Origin: Saccostrea cucullata
Lineage: Eukaryota
Assembly: GCF_032062105.1 (NCBI RefSeq)
Contig: NW_026918862.1
Coordinates: 62,001-126,000, forward strand
Direction: 5' to 3'
Length of the DNA stretch: 64,000 nucleotides
The position numbers were made by a program, and so were the translations under genes. The notes beneath the pieces are model-generated. The model did no database searches. It was not told the origin of the DNA and worked only from the letters and a program-made list of their open reading frames with translations. How positions within the stretch are numbered: position 1 is the first letter of the stretch; each line of letters starts with the position of its first letter. Positions 1-51,600 of the stretch are shown here, one piece after another.

Positions 1-1770
1 TGTAAAAATTCTGCTTGCAATTAAATGTGTCATATGATTTCAGGGTAGTCAATGACTGACAATGAGACCTTTACAAAACATTTTGGAATTTTAGAAGACA
101 ATTTTCTAATTTTGCAAAAGCAGGAGCACTTTTGATACTCTGTGATAATTTCTGAATTCAAATTTAAAATAAGTGAAATATTGCTGTGAATTCCTGCAAA
201 AAACAATTAATTGTAACACCTGCATTTTTAATATACAAATTCTGTGCAACAGGAAAACACCGTTTTAAAGTATTCATTAACATTTAGTAACTAAACAATT
301 GAATTATCAATATTTTTACATCGGTTTTATCACTATGAAGAATATTCTGCTTTAAACTGAATCCTGTTCCATGAAATCAAAGAGGGAATGTAATTTATTT
401 ATGTCGGGTGTTCTTTGTTTGTCATCCTATTAGATATAACAGCAGTACCTTCTTCAAGGATGTGTGCGCATATATAGATAAAAATATAATTATGTAAGGA
501 ACACGTAATACTGAAGATTTTTTTTTATATACGCCGAAAAGTTATATTCAATTCAAAAATAAACTTTTATACATAAAATGGTTGATAAAAGAAAAAAAAA
601 ACATTTAGTTTGTACATTTCTATTTTCTCTCCTCCCTTCAAGGAACCAGTCACTGTAGCAAGGTGGAAATGCGTTTCCTTCGTGATCATGAGACCAAGGA
701 CAGATTCTTTTTCGCGGCGCAGCGTCAAAACTAAGCCGTAAAGATAGGTAGTGACTGTTCCTTCGACAAGCGCTTGGCATTAGAAGTATAAAGTCACAGA
801 TGTTTCGGATGTGACCATAAAAATTCTCACTGCTCAATGGACGTTTCATACGGTGATGTATCTAAATTAATTAGTGAACAATTCTCAAGAGGAGCCTTAA
901 ACAATATACAATCAATCAATCAATCCTGTTAAGGATTTGGTTGGTGTTAAGAGATTACATATGTAAAACGAGACCGTTTGAATGTATGTTTGAATTAAAA
1001 AGAAAATGCTAGTAAAAAGAAGCCAAATAAATAACAGAAACTTTACGTCATCACGGTTCAATATGTACTAGCTTCCTGAGAGTGTTGAATAAGCAATAAT
1101 TGTTTCCTTTAGACTTGTTTCCTACACACATGCCCCTCCTCCAAAAAAAAATGATAAAATCAGCAAGCGTTTCGGTGAAAAATTTAGAAAACTTATTCGG
1201 ATGTTAAGTATTTAGATGTGACTCCAAAAAAAATCATCAGAGCAGGAAGGATACATCCTTAATATATAATTCGTCAAGGTACACTTATATACCCAATGCA
1301 ACTCTATGTATAAGCTCATAATGTCTAGGACGTGTAAGAGTTTTCTTGAAAAGTAAGGAAATTAAGTTGTACAGTCGTCTTGCTATCAAACAACTAGACA
1401 GACATGTCTTATTCTTGGAAAAATAACAATTTTTGTGCTGAACTGTACAGGGATAAGTGTAAATAAACTTCTTTACAGAGTGAAAGGACAGTAAAATGAT
1501 CATAGGTGAAAAGGATGATTCTTCTTTTCCATTATGCTTCAAGATGAACCGATTTTTTTTATGTTTACTCGTCCCAAAGACTTTATTTTTCAATGTTTTT
1601 GTACGATATTTTGGACAGAAAATAAGAAACAGATGGTTTACAATAGAAACTCAAAACAGCTTATTGACAAAACGTGCAACCCATAACTTAAAGCAGGCTA
1701 ATTACAGAAACTCTAATTCAAATGTTGCAAACATCGTGATATTGTATAGCAATTTTTTAGAGCTATTGGA

Positions 1771-1805
1771 TATATAATTATATATCGTTAGGGATGCTGT
1801 TCATC
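1771..1805 (+). promoter_or_regulatory. TATA box / initiator of peptide gene A
   Basis: TATATAA at 1771-1777, ~30 nt upstream of TCA at 1801 and 60 nt upstream of the ATG; homologous TATATA in paralog B at ~15330-15336 (-). Confidence 0.5.
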
Positions 1806-1830: not shown

Positions 1831-4279
1831 ATGCGATTTCTCTGCATTTACTTGATTGTGAGTAATAACTTTGATTAGCGTTCTGTTCAATTCTTTTCTA
1901 TTTCTCTAGGAGTATCTCAGAATGTACAGTAGTTTTTGAACCAGATTAAAAAAAAATGTGCACAATTTAAAATATCTGTGAAACATAGCTTATTGTCAAC
2001 TTATGACTCTGAAAGTGCTGGTTAAAGATTGCAGCCTTAAAATGTGTTTACTGATATTTTGAAGAATTTCTTTTTTGTGTTACACACGATTTCGCTTAAA
2101 AAATACAACAGCACATGTATGAAGTCGTAACAGTGCTGCTTTGAAAAATAAAGCCTTTTAACCCAACTGTTGATATTTTCTTTTTATCATCAAATTGTTT
2201 GGTGAAAGGTTGTCTCATTTTAGAAATTATTTAGATGAGAAGTATGCTGTTATGTATCGAGTGAACTTTAAAACAAATCTGTATAAAAAAAAAGCTTGTG
2301 TTTGCTTAACTTATTGATATTACGTCACAGATTTATTTGAAACTTAGTTTTTCCTATATTATAGATGAGGATCAAGATATTTACGAATCTTGTCATCACG
2401 AAAAACAAATGTGATTAAAACAAAACTGAGACACGGTCATCAAAATAGTTATCAATATTCTTTGTTCGAATTTAATTTCCATCACGTAGACGCTAAATAA
2501 GGCGGCAGTTAAGTGCTACAGAAACGTACTGGAATGTATCTTGTACAATCCCTCAAAATATCAAAAAGTCACCAATATCACTATAGATTATGAGTTTTTA
2601 AAGGGGCATTGACACAGTTTCAGCTTCAGTTTCAATTTTTTTTCCATTTTCCATTTTTTCCATTTTACAAATATTTAACTAGGGTCTTTATTAAGATCAT
2701 CAACAAGTTGAACGACAGTTGTTTATTATTGTTGTCTAAAGTAACCTGGTTGAATTCTTGCTGCTTTCGATATGTAGGTCCAGTTTTAATTCTCTTTTAC
2801 AATGCTTTGTAAAGCTAGGATGACTAACGTATGTTTTGGCACCTTTGCTAGGTACTAAGTCATCAAGATTCCCTCACACGACATGCGCCTGTATGACCCA
2901 ATATTTAACAGTCTCAATTTTAAGTCTATTAATTTTCAGTATTGTGCTGTCTCTAATGTAAGTGAAATATTAAAAAAAAATGACACAAACCGCACCAACA
3001 ACAAAATACTTAATATTTTTTCATAAGAAGTATATATTTCAGTTATGTTTGATTTACATGAGATGATTTTAACAATTCAACTCCTAAGTTTATGTTTATA
3101 TCTTAAGATCTATATATGTATGTTTATATCTATAGATCTATATGCTAATGTATATGTCCATGTCAATGGCAGAAAGGGAGAGGGCATATTCAGTGAAATT
3201 TAAAGGCGAACGCGGGCCTCATGGCAGAGAGTGTAAATATCATTTGAAATATCTCTCTTTTGCTTTTTATCTGTCTTTTTCTTTGAGAACAAGTGAAATT
3301 TAATTTTTCCAATTTCAAATTTTACAGTTTTTATATGACAATGCCTTGTGTCAGTGGATTTTTACACTAAACTACACAAATTAGATAAAACTCCACTAAA
3401 ATTAGCAGATCCAAATTTTACCTCTATTTATGAAGAAAAACTGTTTTATGTTACCACAATAAGAGAGTCTTTTGATATGAAACAATCTCTAGCCTTCCCC
3501 TTTATTAAATTTTTATTTTAGTCCTTGAATCAAATTAAATAAAAACAGGGCGTTAAGTCTTGGAAGCAAAATGGTGTAAAACACGCACAAATGAGAAAAA
3601 ACTCCACCACAATATGCTGATACAAATTTAACTTTCATTACTGAAGCATTTATTATAGTACAATAAGACAATTATTATTGAAGATTCCACTTATATATTG
3701 ACTTTAAAAAGAAAACAAAACTGTCATGAATAATACATTATTTGTTCTAAAAATGTCTCCAGTAAATATTTTCGAAGCGCATTTGATACAGATTACTTAA
3801 TTTTTATCATGCAATGTTCTGTAAACATTTAATTCTGTGATTATATTGACGAAATCATTCCCCTTTTTTCTGGATCAAGAGTAGGTAGTCGATATAAAAA
3901 ATAATCTCTGCCCCCTTTTCATTTCTTTTTATTTCAGTCTTCGAGAATCAAATTAAACAATAGCAACGAGTAAAAATATGAAAACAAAATTATGTAATAT
4001 TTGCATGCATTTTAATTCTAAAAACATTTTTACAGTGAATGAAGACCAACATGAAATTCCAGATGGACAGAGAGCATTGAAATCCTTGAAGTAAGAATAT
4101 ATCATTTAGGCATGCTATGTTTTCAATTAGTGGAATACTTTTCAATCAACAAAATATCATGTTAACTTTTATTTCATTTTTTATTACTATTTATCAATTA
4201 TTGCCTATCTGGAGACACTTTGCAACCTATATCAATTTGCAGGAAGAAAACATACTGGGACTGGACATTACCTGGATAG
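1831..4279 (+). CDS. Small secreted prepropeptide gene A (4 coding exons, 71 aa)
   Basis: Exons 1831-1857, 3136-3232, 4036-4090, 4243-4279; all introns GT-AG with phases 0/1/2 in frame. Protein MRFLCIYLIIYMLMYMSMSMAERERAYSVKFKGERGPHGRELNEDQHEIPDGQRALKSLKKKTYWDWTLPG*. Hydrophobic N-terminus, KKK site, terminal Gly. The paralog at 13701-15277 has the same exon phases. Confidence 0.75.
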
Positions 4280-7079: not shown

Positions 7080-9150
7080 TCTTAACAAGTTTGTACGAAA
7101 TTTTGGTAATTTTAGATTATAATTAGTTTCAGATCGCAAGTTTTAAGAAGTTCAAGAATGAAATTCAAATAAATTATGTGTTAATGTTGCAAATGTTGTA
7201 AAATAATATGTATTTGTATAGATCAACTAGCTCGTAAGCTGTTAACCATCCAAGCTTCTCAAACAGTGGTTTACAAGAAGAATCAGGATTTGCGTCAAGA
7301 ATAATCTTGATGCCCTTTTTATAATTTAAAAAGTCTGTCCATGTCATGCTTGGGGCATTACCCCAAACAGTAAAAAAATAGTTAATAGACAGTAAAATAT
7401 AGGCATTATAATATAGTTTCCTGGTATGAAGAGGGAGAAATTTCTTAATCTTGCGAAGAGTAAATAACTTGTAATTTAAGGTTTTACAAACCGAATCAAT
7501 ATGATTCGCATACTGTAACTTATCATCAATATGTACACCAAGGTTTTTTTTTTCAGTTTCAACCATTTCAACTGTTTTATATGAGGCAAAAAGTTGTAAA
7601 TTTGGATTATTCAGTTTTGATTTTCTTTGTTGTGTTCCCAATAACATACATTTTGTTTTATCTACATTTAATACCATTTGATTTTGAGCAGGGCATTTCT
7701 CATTCTCCTAAAGAACTGAATTTAGTGTATTTTTAACCATCTTGCATTATGATTACTAGAATACAGAGTAGCAGAATCAGCAAACATATCAATATTCGAA
7801 TTGTTTACATGTAAAGGAAGGTCGTTTATGTACAATGAAAAGAGAAGTGCACCCAAAATTGACCCTTGTGATACTCCTGCTGTGACGGGTAAAATATTGG
7901 AATGTGTTCCAAATTTACTACGCTGGATCCTGTTGTAAAGACATGACTGAAACCACTTTATAGCTGTTAAGTCAAATTTGCAATGGGTTAATTTTTCTAG
8001 AAGAATATTATGATTCACAAAATCAAATGCTTTACTAAAATCTATAAATGTAATTCCGATTAGTTCACAACGATCCATTGCATTAAGCCAACTTTCTGTT
8101 AGTTTTGTAAGGGACGTTTGACAGGAATGCAGTTCCCTACATCCCGACTTGGATTGTGCTAGCAGATCAACTTCATTAGTGAAATTTTTTATTAGCTTAC
8201 CTACATGTTTTAAATCAATTTAGATATAGTTGGTACAATAGAAATAGTACGATGATTATTCGGCTCAGATTTGTCCCCTTTCTTAAAAATAGGTGTTACT
8301 TTGGCTTGTTTTCAATTTGTTGGATAAATACCACTCACTATGATAGAGTGGATAAGATATGTTAACATACATATTTACATGCAACTTTCAAAAAACGCGG
8401 TCCAGAAATCATGTATGATTCTAAATTTGCCAGGATCAGATTTTTGTACGACCCCTAGGGGAGACGATATGAAAGGTACGAAAGGAGACGATGTGAAGGG
8501 ACCTGCAAATTTATTATTGTTTAGCCCATTGGTAATAAAATCATCAAGTACTGAGTGATGGCCAATAGTACTTTTGTGTTTTTTTATAAGATAGAATTTG
8601 GAATGCCTTGGCAAAAAAAAAAAAATGAAAGTCATATGAGGACCCTTTCTGATTTGAAGTTTCTTAGAATCATAACCTCCTAAAAACTTAATCATTTTAT
8701 TTATTGTTTTGACTGGTGTTAGTAAGTTTGTGGTTTGACCCCTGGGGTTTTGATGATCCAATGCACTTAGATTTTTGGTGATTTCTTTGCATTGTAAGCA
8801 AATATTTTTTAATGGTCAAGGGTTTCGGAGACAAGGTGTTAAAGTGGAAACAAAATTTCCCTCAAAACGACTGGTGTTGAGCGTGTTTATTGTAAGTTTT
8901 AGTGAGGGTTGCAACTTTTAATTTCAATTCTTGAATTCGATTTTACCAAGGGACATTTACTGTTTCTTTGAGCTTCCTAAGCTGTTCGTCAGACAATCTA
9001 AGTGGTTCCTTCTGAAAAAAATTTAAATAATCAAATGTTACACCGTTTTCAATTTATTTACTTCTGCTTTTTTTATGAACATATAGTTTGTTTTCCATAT
9101 TTTTCCACACAATTTCTTCTAATGTGGTAGGAGAGTAATGATAAACATTT
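7080..9150 (-). pseudogene. Degenerate non-LTR retrotransposon (CR1/L2-like LINE) reverse transcriptase
   Basis: Broken frames with VTPIFKKGD, FIDFSKAFD..NHNILLEKL, GVSQGSILG, MFADS (YADD position), LNVDKTKCM and LGVHID motifs; frameshifts and stops; interrupted at ~8355-8700. Confidence 0.88.
8400..8600 (-). mobile_element. DIRS/Ngaro-like tyrosine-recombinase retrotransposon RT fragment inside the LINE
   Basis: FAGPFTSSPFVPFISSPLGVVQKSDPGKFRIIHD matches the DIRS RT N-terminal pattern (GPF...SPLG.V.K...K.R.IHD). Confidence 0.65.
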
Positions 9151-13700: not shown

Positions 13701-14642
13701 CTAGTCGAGGTCCCTTCCACCTCGTCTTGGTATACCCCAGAATGATTTCCTCCTGTAAATTCATATCAGCTATAAAGTCCATCAGCATATGTAACAAGTG
13801 ATAAAACAATAATAATATAAAAGGAAATATAAAGTAACTGTTGATATTTTCCAGATTGAATAATATTCCACTAACTGAAAACATGGAATGTATATATGAT
13901 ATAATCTTACTTCAAAGTTTTAAATGCTCTCCCTCCGTCTGGAAGTTGTTGTTGGTCTTCAAACACTCGAAAACCTATTTAGCATTGAAGTACAAGCCAA
14001 GATTTAATCGTTTTGTTTTCATGTTTTAAGGCGCTGTGACTATTTAACTTGATTCTAAGACTAAAATAAAATTTGAAAGGGGGAAGCTGGAGACTGCTTA
14101 ATATCCACAACCTACTGTTGATCCAGAAAAGAAAGTGAGAGGGATTCAATTAATATCAACACAGGCTTAAATGTGTGTAGAACATTGCATAATAAATATT
14201 AAATAGTATTATCAAACGTAATTTCAAAATGTGTACTTGAAACATTTCTCTTAAACAAAGATCTTATGTTTCATAAGAAATATTTTTGCATTAAAATATA
14301 TATTTATATTTTTTAAATTCCCAAATAAAAGATAATTTTATTGTGCTATTAAAAAAATTCTTCTACAATAATGAAAGAAAAATCTGATCTGTTAATTGTA
14401 GTGATATTTTATCCCATTGGTGAAGTTCTTTTTTTCTTGTATTTAAATAAATATGTATGAACTCTTCAACTATAAAGCTGTTTTATTGTGTTATAATTAC
14501 ATAAAAAAAATGAAGGAAATTTTATCTCATTTGTAAAGTTTACATTAATCTACTGACAGCAAAAAAAAATTGTTTTGAAATACACTGTCAAATTCGAAAT
14601 TTTATAAGCTATTTTTTCTTATTTTTATTTACTAGACAAAGC

Positions 14643-14704
<62 letters not shown>

Positions 14705-15277
14705 TTTTCAAGCGATATTTACCCCGTCTACCAATTCGACCAGGTGCGTCATGGTATCCTAAAATTCCTCTTTCTTCTGTTTGGAGTGACAAATTCAGAG
14801 TCAAAGAGATCTAGAGATATAAAAACACATATGAGTTAAACTGGTAAGAAACTGTTTTGTCTTTCAAAAATAGACTCCAATACTTATTTCTTACAAAATG
14901 TATTGAACATTTTTGTTGTTAGTTTTTTTTGCATCCTTAGAAAAAAATATTTTCACTAATATGATATAACAGCAATGCTGAAGACAATCGACTTTAATTT
15001 AAGACATATTCAAAATATCAGTATACACATTTTATGGTTGATTAAAAGTGACTTAAAGATAATCCTTAGACAGCACTACAGCAATTATAAATCGTCAATA
15101 AGCTATGTTTCATATATGTAGGTATTTAAATTGTGCAAAAATGACCCTTTTTTAACTTCATCCAAAAATATTTTATATTCAAACGATACGCGTAGAGAAA
15201 TAAACAAGAATTGAAAGGGAAAGAAAATAATCAAAATTATTACTTACAATTAAGTAAATGCAGAGATATCGAATCAT
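13701..15277 (-). CDS. Small secreted prepropeptide gene B (4 coding exons, 77 aa; paralog of gene A)
   Basis: Exons 15277-15248, 14810-14723, 13974-13911 (or 13965-13911, in frame), 13752-13701; GT-AG introns, phases 0/1/2. Protein MIRYLCIYLIISLTLNLSLQTEERGILGYHDAPGRIGRRGFRVFEDQQQLPDGGRAFKTLKRKSFWGIPRRGGRDLD*. AATAAA at 13630-13635 (-). Confidence 0.75.
14644..14702. repeat. (GA)n microsatellite in intron 2 of gene B
   Basis: ~29 uninterrupted AG/GA units. Confidence 0.98.
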
Positions 15278-31500: not shown

Positions 31501-34500
31501 AGTATTATCTTATCAAAACTTACCACGGTTACATTCCTATAAAGTTCAATAAATATATTCCAAATGTTCCTCAAAAATCCTTTTAACTGGTTCTTCTTAA
31601 GATGAAACTAACAAGTCATTAGTTAATTTTATTTCTTCCAAGCCATACAATTCCTTACCCCTAAAACACGACTTCTCTAATCAACTTATCAAATCAACAT
31701 ACCAGAAAGCACATATATCTCGAAACATTTTTATTAAGTCTAAGTAGAAGATTAAGTATATAAGTAAAATTTTATCTGAAAACTACATACATGGCGACTT
31801 TTCTGAATGGAAGTAGTTTCCAAATAAACTCTAGATTAAAATAAGTTAAGTAATCTCCATGCATGTAACACAACAAATAACACATTTAACTCCAAAAATC
31901 TTTTACGATCGGGCTCGATGTACACCTTTTACGACCGCCAAGTTTGCTAACATTTCACAAGTTTACAAGGCTATATACCTGCAATAGTCTACTTAAAACA
32001 ACTTAAACTGCAAGAAAACAGGATTCTGTCCATAAATCTATGGTTAATCTACTACGGAAGACCAATCAAAATCCCTGGCACTCGAAGTAAGCTCAAACAG
32101 TTTCACAACTTAACTACTGCTATAATCAGCTGATTTCAATATGTACACGTTACAAACTATTTCAACTCATGTAAATCTGTTAAACTTGTCAATTATCACC
32201 TTTCAACAACATGTAAAGCATAAATTAATACATATTCTTGCATTGTCAATTAACTAAAACACAAAAGAAAAATCATCTCAACCTCGTACAATGTCAACAA
32301 TAATCATGTTCAATAACTGTATAAAACTAATCTGTCAGGCTGTCAATTCACTAAGCTGTTACAAAATATCGATCATCATTCATTCAAAGCCACATATATT
32401 TATTATTTACCACTTGTTAAAATGGCTACAACATTATTTCAATAAATCTTAAGCTTAGTGACTAGCACAGGCTAGACCCTCTGTATAGGTTAATAGCACT
32501 TAACTCATTGATAGTTATAATTAATAGTCCAACAATACAAGTAAATGGCAGCCATATGCAGAAAATTCAATTTTTGTAGGCAGTTGTAAGCTAGGTTCTT
32601 GTTTATTACATTTATTAGGACATTGAAATCAACATTAAAATTTTCTCTTGAACCTAATCAAATTACGCCAGAAAACCACTTTGATCTGCAAACGAAACTG
32701 TCTGGGGAATCTATCTTGTCCTCAGTCCTATACATGTACAGATATGTGACATAACTGCAAAGAAACTGGTAAGGGATTAAAGACTTCTAAGGAAAACTGC
32801 TTATTCCCAACACCCCAGCAGTAACTAGAGAGCAATAAATACCTAACTCCTGGAAACTGTTTGAAAACTTCTAAAAAATTTTAAACTGCTAAAGAATTGC
32901 TTAATAACTGCCCATATATACAGCGGCGGATCATAATATTATAAACAAAATGGCGTCGTCGCGTTATTAGCAACATACGGATCCGGTATATAAAAAAACG
33001 ATTTCTCCATTATAACAGATTTGTATAAATGAAACTTACCTAATATTTTGTGGCATACCCCTTTGATCTTATAATCTTGATCATTCGTTGTGGAAGTGAT
33101 CTGTAAAGGTTCCGTATATAATGAATGGGGATGGTGGTCCATATTCTCCGAATTTCTTGTTCTAGATCCGCTGCGTTGGTAATTCTGTTTGCACATTTTC
33201 TAAGCTGATTTTTCAACAAAAGCCAACAGTTTTCAATTATGTTAGCATCCGGAGATTGGGCAGGCCACAGCATTCCTCGAATATTATTTTCAGTTTTGTA
33301 ATTTAGCACAATCCTTGCGCGATGTACTGGCGCATTGTCATCTTGAAAAATAAAGTCATTCTGTGGAAAATGCTGGGCAACAACTGGCCACAGTTCATTA
33401 TCAATTATTTCCCTGTACTTTTCAGCTTTGATATTGCCATTGACAACTGTCAAAGTACCTGGTCCATTCCAGCAGATACATCCCCATATCATTAGACTAA
33501 CCTTTGCGCCACGACTGGGGCTAATGCATTGCGGCATCCACTCCTCTCCGGGTCTCCGCCACACATATACGCGATTATTTTCTCCAATAATCACCTTACA
33601 TTCATCAGAAAAAATAACACGATTCCAGTCACCATCAACTTTCCAATGCCTTTTCCCCCTAGCCCACTCAACTCGTTTCTTTATGTTTACATCTCGGATT
33701 CGTATGTTTTTTCTTACAACTCGTCTATGGTATTTATTTTGGAACAAACATCTTTTTACAGTTACTTCTGAAACAGTATCCCCCCTAAACTTTTTGAATC
33801 TGGCAGTGATATCTTTCAGAGGTTCGACACGATGTGTTTTTACCAACCTTAAAATTGACCGTTCGTCCTGCACACTAAGTTTTTTCTTTCTTCCCTTTCT
33901 AGGATTATTCTCCACCGAACCCCGCTCCTGATATCGCTTTATCACAGCACAAACTGTACATGGGTTTGATCCCAGGCACTTTGCAATTTTTCATTGTTTT
34001 ATTCCACTCTGAAAACTATTTACGATCCTTTGTTTTAAGCTTGGTGATAAATCTTTCGCCTTTCCCATTCTCTGTTTACATACAGAATGACGTAATTTAT
34101 TGCATCACAATCATGATACGTCATATCTTATTATAACATAATACGTCTTTTAACCCAGTCATGTGCCCTTTTTATTGAAACATGCATACTGAGAGGAGCT
34201 ACAGATAAATAAGAGTGATCGTTTTTTTAACCGCAATTGGAACGCCATTTTGTTTATAATATTATGATCCGCCGCTGTATATCCATGTTGTCCCATTCAG
34301 AGAACATAACAGACGCTGATGACTTTGTTGCACAATGACATGTTGGTGTGATAATTATGAATTCTTATTTGATATATAGTATCTCTTATATGTCTGTATG
34401 TTTTTTCATCCCACTGGTTTGAATGTGCAGGTGATAGCTGATCAAAGTTGGAGACATTATATTAAATGTTTAGGCCAAAGTTTTTTTATGTCTTGGTTTA

Positions 34501-48623: not shown

Positions 48624-51600
48624 TTACTTTTTCAGGTTGACTAACACTGCTTCATGATAGCTGTAGTATGTGGGTACCTTAAATGTCTCAAGTTCCAATG
48701 GACATGTTGTGTACACCAAATCTAGTACAGTTTGCTGCTCAGTTGTGGGGAAACTTACAACTTGTGTAAAGCCTTTCTCAAACATGAACTTTTGTACTGG
48801 TCCACCAATTTTTGCATTCTCATTGAAATCCCCAAGTATGATGCCTCTGTAATTTGGTAATAATACTGATTTCATCACATTTTCTAATGCTATCAAGAAG
48901 TCTTTGGCTGGCAAGACAGAAGGTCTGTAAATATTCACCAAAATTACTTGCTCTTGTATTAGCTTTAAAGCTATACACTCTATGTTTTTCCCACAAATTG
49001 GAATTATTACAGCATTTGAGCTTTTTCTGCTGTACACTGCAACACCTCCACCGTTTGATGTACGTAATCTATCTGTTTTACAATTCTCACTATTATATGA
49101 CTCTGCTCTCGATATATGACAGAAATTGTAATCCTCAATTTGAAAGTTTGCTGTATCTTGACCTTGTGTCAGCCATGTTTCTGTTAAACACAGGATATCA
49201 GCATTCCAAAAGCGACAATCATGTTTCAGATTTTCAAAATTTCCAGCTAAACTTTGAATATTGTGTAAGATGATCTTTGTACAACTTAGCAAACTTGATC
49301 CTTCATTTTGGACTGGAAACAAAAGTGGCATTTTTTCAATTGATGATTTAACATCGGCATCAGCATGTATCTTCTTTTCTAGGAGTGCCTCATCTGCTGT
49401 CTCTATAAAAAGCCCTCTCAAAGATGTTACTCGACTTAGTGCAACATATGCCTGTCCAGGGGAGAATGACTTGTCTAAATTAACAACAATTTGGTCTGCT
49501 GTCATACCTTGCACTTTATGGGCTGTGCACGCCCAGGATAACTTTAATGGAAACTGGTGACGAACAACACTTTTTGATTTGTTTACTTTGACTTCTTCTT
49601 CTATTCTCTCTATGAGAACTATGTGCCCATTTGCAGCACTTTTCCCTGTTTTTTTTCCAACATTTTTGTTATCAAATTGAACACCTATTGCTTTGATAGA
49701 AGATTTTCCATTTTTGTGTTCTGTCAGAAAGTGTGAGATATTACCCATTACACCATTGACCAACCCATCATCTACATTGATGTTTCTTATAAGCATAACT
49801 CTTGCATTTACTGAAAGAAGGATGGAAGCACTTAGTCCGTCTAACTTGGTACTTGATAAGGGACTCTCTCTTAGTGAAAGTTTTCCAGTTGTTTTGTCTT
49901 TCTGATAGTCTAATGCATCAATTTCAACAAGTTCTTCAGATGTCTTTTTCAGCATAGACAGATTGAAGTTATTCACCTCATCATTTGTTGAATATACATG
50001 CAAAGCATCTTCTGGACCATCTCTAATACAATTCTTCAGCATATGTTTGGTTTCCTCTGACAAGTTTTCCTCCTTTGTTCGTATGCGTAAAGTGTTTAGA
50101 AACATTGCAAATGGAACATCTTCACGCTGCCTCATCACTTCATTTAATTCAACAAGTTTAAAAAGTTCTAGCCAGTGATCATCAGGATATGATCCATTTT
50201 CTTTGTATAGACGTTCATTTTTTGATTGCTTTACTGGTGGTAGTTGAAAGAAATCACCAACAGCTAGAACTGTAACTCCTCCAAAGGGCTTTTTGCATTT
50301 TTTAATTTGAACAAGTCTTTCATGCACATAGTAAAGGAGCCTCTTATATACCATTGACACTTCATCAATGACAAGGATTTGTAGCGATTCCAGTTTGACT
50401 CTAAGAGTACTAAGACTCTGTTCATTCTGTGGTTCATACGGGAGTGGTAAAAATTTTGTCAATGCAAAAACTTTATGTATTGTGTTTCCACCAATATTAA
50501 AAGCTGCTGTGCCCGTGAATGCTGTTAAGACTACGGAAACACAATCTGGTGATGGAAGATTTTTACTGAACAAACGTTCTGCTTCAAAATGGACAGCTTT
50601 TATCAGATGGCTTTTCCCTGTTCCAGCTCCACCAGTAACAAAAATATGAAGTGGATCAATTTCTTCACCTGCGACTCTTTTTAGACACCAATCTCGCACA
50701 TGATAAAATATTTTCTTTTGTGTTTCATTCAAGGATTGCAGAACTGGTAATATTTCCTGCTTTGTGCTATTACTTTGCTGAACTACATATGAGAGATTTT
50801 CTGTGGGAAATACATTGTCAATATCAGGGAGCACATCATTATGGTCATTTTCCTGCAAATCTGGTCTTTTTCTTGTTGACATACATTCTTTTCTGCTCAC
50901 TTCAGTCTCTGGACAGAGTTGGGCCCATGCATCTTCTGGTTCACCGACCATGTCAAATACTTCTTGAGCGGAGTTAACGACATCTTCATTTTTAGCAAAA
51001 CAAGCTCGATTTGCATCCACAATAGATTTTACAGATTGCAATTTCCTTTTCTTAGACATTCGGATATGTCCCTTTTCATAAAAAGACATGTACAAGTCAA
51101 AACCTTTGGGTTTTAGTTGTTCCTCTTTCCTGTGTGGCAAATAAAGTTGCAGTAAAGACTGATAATACTTTTCTGATGATTTTTCTGAGCTGAACCTTGG
51201 GTATCTGATCACAGCTGGATTTGTTCTTGTTCTCTGCTGTATAAAACCTTTTCCATTCTGCAGCTCATACACAGACTCATTTGGTCCTTTTGGCACTTGG
51301 GATTTTGATAGAACTCTGAACTCTGAACAGAACTGTGCTAGACACATCCCTTGAAACTTATCACTGTCTGGTCGATTTTCATATCGTTCTATAATATTTG
51401 TCATCCAAATACTCTCTTCGTCATCGTCGTCATCATCATCATCACATTTTTGAGCATTTCCTTCATATTTTTTCCTTTTCATTTGAGAAAGAGGTTTACT
51501 AAGGCGGGTTGGGTTGTCACCAACAGGTATAAATACAATTTTTCTAGAACACTCCTTCATTTTTAAGTTACAAACTCTGTACACAGCCTCCTGGGCACTT

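Follow-up and report, generated by a model that had tools for sequence, protein, structure and literature searches.

A family of predicted two-peptide secreted precursors in an oyster, with recombining paralogs and probable selection on the peptide exons

The window analysed here, a stretch of 64,000 nucleotides from the oyster Saccostrea cucullata, carries two paralogous four-exon genes, A (1831-4279, plus strand) and B (15277-13701, minus strand), which are predicted to encode secreted prepropeptides and which belong to a family of at least 44 distinct copies in this oyster genome (clusters at 97% identity). We consider it probable that the family encodes secreted precursors of two peptides each, which diversify through selection on the peptide regions and through swapping of exon modules between paralogs. 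Recombination constitutes a second source of diversity beside selection, one that was absent from the initial annotation of this DNA.

Gene anatomy and predicted peptides

The initial annotation correctly placed both genes, found their frames open, measured intron 3 at 152 bp in A against 158 bp in B, and saw that the peptide parts differ in length. The introns have phases 0, 1 and 2, and the predicted precursors comprise about 71 residues in A and about 74 in B. Upstream of A lies a TATA-like element (1766-1785, plus strand) of presumed function, with a TATA-like word occurring here in 31 of 44 family upstream regions. The coding part of A exon 1 (1831-1857) specifies residues 1-9 of the predicted signal peptide and ends in a phase-0 GT donor. 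Exon 2 (3136-3232) adds the last 12 signal residues (3136-3171), then a predicted cationic peptide 1 with a Gly-Arg site at its end, before a phase-1 donor; its start overlaps the remnant of a 28-bp minisatellite (3080-3145), the repeat unit of which includes the exon-2 acceptor. Intron 2 (3233-4035, 803 bp) is a mosaic with a switch near 3578-3581. Exon 3 (4036-4090, 55 nt) encodes an acidic spacer with an NEDQ..PD motif, followed by a basic run-up and a phase-2 donor, and is separated by intron 3 (4091-4242) from the coding part of exon 4 (4243-4279), which holds a basic site, a Trp/Tyr-rich predicted peptide 2, a terminal Gly (predicted amide donor) and the stop. That Gly results from a 14-bp deletion relative to the closest paralog, L035.

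On the minus strand, B follows the same plan, with the coding part of exon 1 at 15248-15277. Exon 2 (14723-14810) carries the signal end and a predicted peptide 1 with a Gly-Arg-Arg terminus, exon 3 (13911-13965) precedes intron 3 (13753-13910), and the coding part of exon 4 (13701-13752) comprises a basic site, predicted peptide 2, a GRDLD tail and the stop. The homologous acceptor of exon 3 (13965-13977, minus strand) reads GAG instead of the family's CAG in B's subfamily (with L047 and L053); an in-frame TAG situated 9 nt before it would, if used as acceptor, lengthen the product by three residues.

Across the family, the predicted layout is a signal peptide (exons 1-2), cationic peptide 1 (exon 2), an acidic spacer (exon 3) and peptide 2 (exon 4). 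Residues 1-21 form a hydrophobic stretch, with a median of 2.6 for the best Kyte-Doolittle window of nine residues, and close with Ser-Thr-Ala in 21/33 cases; homology and hydrophobicity lead us to read this stretch as a signal peptide, which signal peptidase would remove after about residue 21. What follows in exon 2 has a median of 17 residues and a median charge of +4 (+2 or more in 33/37), is Cys-free in 32/37 and contains Gly-Arg/Lys in 23/37. The first nine residues of exon 3 have a median charge of -3, and this acidic spacer may neutralise the cationic peptides until their release. Exon 4 shows neuropeptide-type processing signals, with a dibasic site predicted within its first four residues in 24/40 and an amide signal (Gly-Arg/Lys or terminal Gly) in 26/40. 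From these motifs we infer that the precursors are secreted, cut at basic sites and amidated, releasing two peptides: convertases would cut at Arg and Lys-Arg type sites, and Gly-Arg or a terminal Gly would give rise to C-terminal amides.

Peptide 2 contains two or more aromatic residues in 33/40 copies, and its other properties depend on where it is cut. Cleavage at the exon-4 basic site would leave a median of 11.5 residues with a charge of zero or below in 21/40, whereas cleavage at the exon-3 Arg would leave a cationic peptide of about 20 residues (+2 or more in 29/40). Helical amphipathicity exceeds that of shuffled sequences in only 5/39 long peptide-2 forms and 0/35 peptide-1 forms. This weak amphipathicity and the neutral short peptide-2 cores count against a simple membrane-lytic role.

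The same properties would suit signalling peptides, such as pheromones, spawning or gamete-recognition cues, or paracrine receptor ligands, diversifying by reproductive or receptor co-evolution: the peptide-2 cores are short, aromatic and often uncharged, amphipathicity is weak, and each precursor combines several peptides with dibasic sites and amide signals. However, peptide 1 is strongly cationic, and no shared C-terminal motif was found among the predicted peptides of the family copies. Neuropeptide families usually retain such a motif. Moreover, none of the mollusc-specific precursors in section 2.7 of one survey, compared by their descriptions there, fits (PMC8398477). We regard a signalling function as rather unlikely. 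Host defence against microbes in the manner of the mussel myticalins appears the likeliest role, with about even chances, and other roles share what is left.

Divergence and probable selection in the peptide exons

A and B represent a deep split of the family. Their non-peptide parts remain similar, both on the 5' side (upstream 114/142 aligned bases, exon 1 24/27 or 89%, start of intron 1 109/135) and on the 3' side (end of intron 2 143/193, exon 3 44/55 or 80%, intron 3 116/152, 3' UTR 61/85), so that aligned bases in the flanks and introns agree at 72-81%. The exon-2 peptide half reaches 30/52 aligned bases (58%; 30/61 columns) and exon 4 26/34 aligned bases (26/49 columns). The peptide parts are therefore the least alignable, as first noted, but the further claim that they do not align at all went too far: both beat shuffled sequences (score reached by 1/500 and 0/500 shuffles), and 13 of the 16 nucleotides that open exon 4 are identical. 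Nor is divergence limited to the peptide parts, since the signal-coding half of exon 2 is as diverged as the peptide half (20/36, 56%). Being too distant and too short, the A-B pair alone cannot show selection.

Between A and its closest paralog L035 (+), excess divergence of the peptide exons is found in exon 2 only (peptide part 47/60 identical, against 733/797 and 142/151 in the introns and 30/31 in exon 4). Between B and L053 the excess lies in exon 4, with 11 nonsynonymous and 0 synonymous differences, against 24/326 in non-coding DNA.

For independent pairs picked on non-coding trees, the six closest 5' pairs have a peptide-1 pN of 0.217 against 0.073 for non-coding DNA, and seven close 3' pairs have an exon-4 pN of 0.19, a pS of 0.055 and a non-coding divergence of 0.076, corresponding to 43.5 nonsynonymous and 3.5 synonymous differences. 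Pairwise codon likelihood gave dN/dS values of 0.25-0.6 for the signal, 0.4-0.7 for the spacer and 1.5-2.4 for exon 4 (p 0.013-0.14), with any pair involving L061 (early stop) or L033 (out of register) excluded from the exon-4 tests. For peptide 1 the estimate depends on the cut-off, shifting from 2.2-2.4 in the six closest pairs to 1.0-1.2 with 9 or 13 pairs.

Tree models, in our own implementation with branch lengths from non-coding DNA, covered 28 sequences in seven subfamilies and 24 in nine; S8 (frameshifted exon 4) and F10 (unalignable) were left out of the tree, site and subfamily models. Here dN/dS was 0.39 for the signal, 1.24 for peptide 1 (p=0.27), 0.78 for exon 3 and 1.45 for exon 4 (p=0.04). 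The synonymous rate was 0.8-0.9 of the non-coding rate, so a mutator acting on the exons is not needed. For exon 4 (88 codons, p=8.7e-8) and likewise for the exon-2 peptide (134 codons, p=0.0027), site models favoured including a class of sites with dN/dS>1, in tests that recombination (shown here) and short alignments can inflate; such a class was unsupported in exon 3 (p=0.33) and in the signal (p=0.71). The result holds when any one subfamily is left out (worst p=0.012 for peptide 1, 1.6e-5 for exon 4). By subfamily, dN/dS ranges from 0.4 to 4.2, with 2.4 and 2.6 in A's, 3.5 and 4.2 in B's and 0.4-2.0 in the others, several of which lie at or below 1.

These values show purifying selection on the signal-coding sequence and offer moderately good support for positive selection on both peptide regions, episodic and strongest in the subfamilies of A and B. 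Diversifying selection on the predicted mature peptides, which the initial annotation had proposed from the A-B pair, was thus borne out by the site models once paralogs were added, with positively selected sites in both peptide regions, even though the whole-region value for peptide 1 (1.24) is not significant. Its wording that selection was 'confined' to the mature peptides was too strong, as B's subfamily has a dN/dS of 1.6 in exon 3 and 1.05 in the signal.

An alternative is that the peptide exons are merely unconstrained, their excess divergence stemming from gene conversion or recombination without positive selection. Recombination between paralogs does occur (see below), peptide-1 dN/dS lies near 1 in the larger pair sets, and between A and L035 the synonymous (0.36) and nonsynonymous (0.33) values of the exon-2 peptide are both raised, as a converted tract would give. 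However, a fast-but-neutral site class fits worse than one with dN/dS>1, even if support falls to p=0.016 and 0.023 in that comparison; nonsynonymous differences far outnumber synonymous ones in exon 4 of the seven close pairs; and indels keep the frame. Taken with these points, neutral divergence seems improbable.

A further proposal was that the two peptide modules arose by internal duplication, suggested by the GRELNE/GRDLD echo. It found no nucleotide support: aligned to exon 4 plus UTR, the exon 2-3 junction consensus scores at chance level (812/2000 shuffles reach its score), and exon 4 against exon 2 gives a mean score of 16.5 versus 16.4 when shuffled. GRE at the end of exon 2 occurs in a few copies and is not a family-wide motif, and GRDLD is restricted to B's subfamily. 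Gly-Arg followed by an acidic residue would be expected anyway at two processing sites.

Recombination between paralogs and the genomic family

The 5' and 3' halves of these genes have conflicting histories. Among 22 genes with both halves (near-identical duplicates and L074, with its uncertain exon pairing, left out), the tree of each half is rejected by the data of the other: the 3' tree by 5' non-coding data (AU p=1e-63), the 5' tree by 3' data (4e-7). At the level of single clades, the 5'-tree group of A, L035, L036 and L039 is rejected by the 3' data (AU p=1.9e-5), the 3'-tree group of A, L035 and L037 by the 5' data (p=9e-5), and B with L038 on the 3' data (p=0.003); B with L053 and L047 on the 5' data, one of the four single-clade tests, was not significantly rejected (p=0.055). 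Moreover, the parentage of A switches inside intron 2, where bases 1-349 match L039 (81%) and bases 346-803 match L037 (80%). Intron 2 of L039 is 376 bp long, and A carries two copies of the stretch preceding exon 3, a pattern that we take to have been left by an out-of-register crossover near 3580. The whole mosaic intron recurs at 91% in L035, which lies on a different contig, and this makes a one-off assembly error less likely. The conflicting half-trees and the switch in A imply that the peptide modules recombined between paralogs.

Within 627 kb of examined genome DNA, we located 56 exon-1, 52 exon-2 and 52 exon-3 places; each genome search returned at least 40-56 matches, of which the best 40 candidates were scored. 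The exon-3 places are spread over 37 contigs and fall into 44 clusters at 97%, so some of them are haplotype or very recent duplicates, and the assembly indeed contains near-identical duplicates of family copies. A more sensitive profile gave 62 exon-3 matches. Five family genes fall within 60 kb on the contig of A and B.

The copies bear clear marks of protein-coding genes. A donor was located by homology in 48 of the 52 exon-2 places, yielding 42 unique sequences; phase is kept in 40 of these, over 15 different lengths (64-110 nt), with stops in 5/42, and exon 3 keeps its phase in 40/41 unique sequences. As a control, 29 intron-3 lengths are spread 8/11/10 across the three phases. A protein-coding nature is strongly supported by these patterns. 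High copy number, some broken copies and the lack of a protein homolog or Pfam match in single-exon searches might suggest remnants of non-coding repeats or mobile elements, with gene models arising by chance; this is very improbable given the phase conservation, the GT/AG sites conserved in 38 and 41 of 42 exon-2 sequences, the low dN/dS of the signal and an exon order 1-2-3-4 kept across introns of very different length.

Several copies have unusual structures. In many paralogs the 28-bp minisatellite, its unit containing the exon-2 acceptor and the first codons, has grown into a longer array directly before exon 2, reaching 63.9 copies in L050 (L050:2202-3997). A single gene can hold as many as 74 acceptor-like words, so that the true acceptor comes last in a long series of similar sites. 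A neighbouring paralog, L033, has two identical exon 2 copies in tandem (G000:C999, 40757 and 42184). At G000:C7222, C19265 and C10217, one exon 1-2 unit with a stop in exon 2 is followed by two different exon-3 modules, possibly alternative 3' modules or remnants. In one subfamily (L072, L073, L075 and L076), no family donor can be recognised in exon 2, which runs on into a stop, and an exon 3 still lies 1-2.5 kb downstream.

The window also holds an uninterrupted Helitron ORF of 2622 residues (48624-56492, minus strand) with Helitron_like_N, PIF1, OTU, Herpes_teg_N-like and endonuclease/exonuclease/phosphatase domains. A 316-residue ORF (33040-33990, minus strand) presumably resembles a Tc1/mariner transposase, and between A and B lie broken frames (7174-8219, minus strand) that we take to resemble the reverse transcriptase of a LINE. 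Elsewhere in the genome, a large contig (G000:C10137) carries two COX1 copies 16 kb apart (L092, L093), differing in stop count from the copy on C23869; they may be nuclear mitochondrial insertions or the product of an assembly join.

Relation to known peptide families and significance

The nearest parallels are the myticalins and modiocalins of mussels, described in two papers as secreted, Cys-free, hypervariable cationic peptides flanked by a conserved signal on one side and an anionic region on the other, with convertase sites, amidation, a phase-1 intron after the peptide exon and a tandem multigene organisation including pseudogenes, with gill expression for myticalins (PMC5577615, PMC12294457). 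The present family has the same succession of a cationic, mostly Cys-free peptide and an anionic region. In contrast, myticalins have three exons, of which the first is non-coding and the second holds the signal together with the mature peptide (PMC5577615), and one peptide of 23-42 residues per precursor, whereas the oyster genes have four coding exons, a phase-0 intron that interrupts the signal and, beyond the acidic spacer, a second peptide. The oyster signal departs, compared by eye, from the myticalin consensus printed in PMC5577615. Furthermore, these sources restrict myticalins to Mytilida and report none detected in oyster genomes, whereas the host here is a true oyster, its COX1 being 94% identical to an Ostrea cluster and about 61% identical to the next named matches.

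In the Pacific oyster, Cg-Prp is likewise linear and multigene (11-13 copies), combines anionic and cationic domains, and has been reported to show recombination and positively selected sites (PMC2823732). As described there, Cg-Prp has one intron or none, with the anionic domain before a single cationic domain. The present genes have three introns and a cationic-acidic-basic order. Conotoxins, which are mostly disulfide-bonded, offer another parallel. Their introns are conserved within a superfamily, and point mutations and trinucleotide indels concentrate in the mature-peptide exon (PMC3862624), much as the oyster peptide exons carry positively selected sites and in-frame indels. However, conotoxins are described as venom components of predatory snails with two or three exons, one mature-peptide exon and rare recombination (PMC3862624), whereas our family occurs in a filter feeder, encodes mostly Cys-free peptides and has no Pfam or protein match for single exons. 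Molluscan neuropeptide precursors also combine a signal, several peptides, basic cleavage sites and amide signals, but according to PMC8398477 they are single or few genes with motifs common across species, unlike these dozens of copies without a shared peptide motif.

Protein searches gave weak blanks, the queries being single exons with 16-36 informative residues: 0/29 candidates for the exon-3 profile at E<=10, 0/167 for the exon-2 profile, nothing meaningful in Pfam for six single-exon queries, and two HMMER matches of the exon-2 profile among 1.84 billion representatives, both repeat-driven and without the family layout. No such oyster family was found in the literature searched, the text of papers mostly from non-subscription journals. 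The family, its two-peptide layout and its half-swapping appear to be undescribed, and the evolutionary pattern is of a known kind.

Each precursor would yield two short, cysteine-free peptides, with diversity arising from tandem duplication, from episodic positive selection accompanied by in-frame indels, and from out-of-register recombination in intron 2, which would bring together a peptide 1 and a peptide 2 from different lineages. It is conceivable, and we propose it tentatively, that dozens of genes with two independent bioactive peptides each amount to an oyster arsenal for host defence or recognition, a combinatorial germline library shaped by intron-2 recombination and selection. Few Cys-free defence peptides are listed for bivalves in a 2025 paper, which names Cg-Prp, molluscidins and myticalins (PMC12294457). 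With at least 44 genes, most with two predicted peptides, the family would extend this list by tens of short peptides, inexpensive both to make synthetically and to assay. Genes with such tiny exons are easily missed by annotation, and this family clearly illustrates how modules are swapped at the level of exons under selection. Should the peptides instead serve as reproductive signals, they would be candidates for oyster spawning or species-recognition cues.
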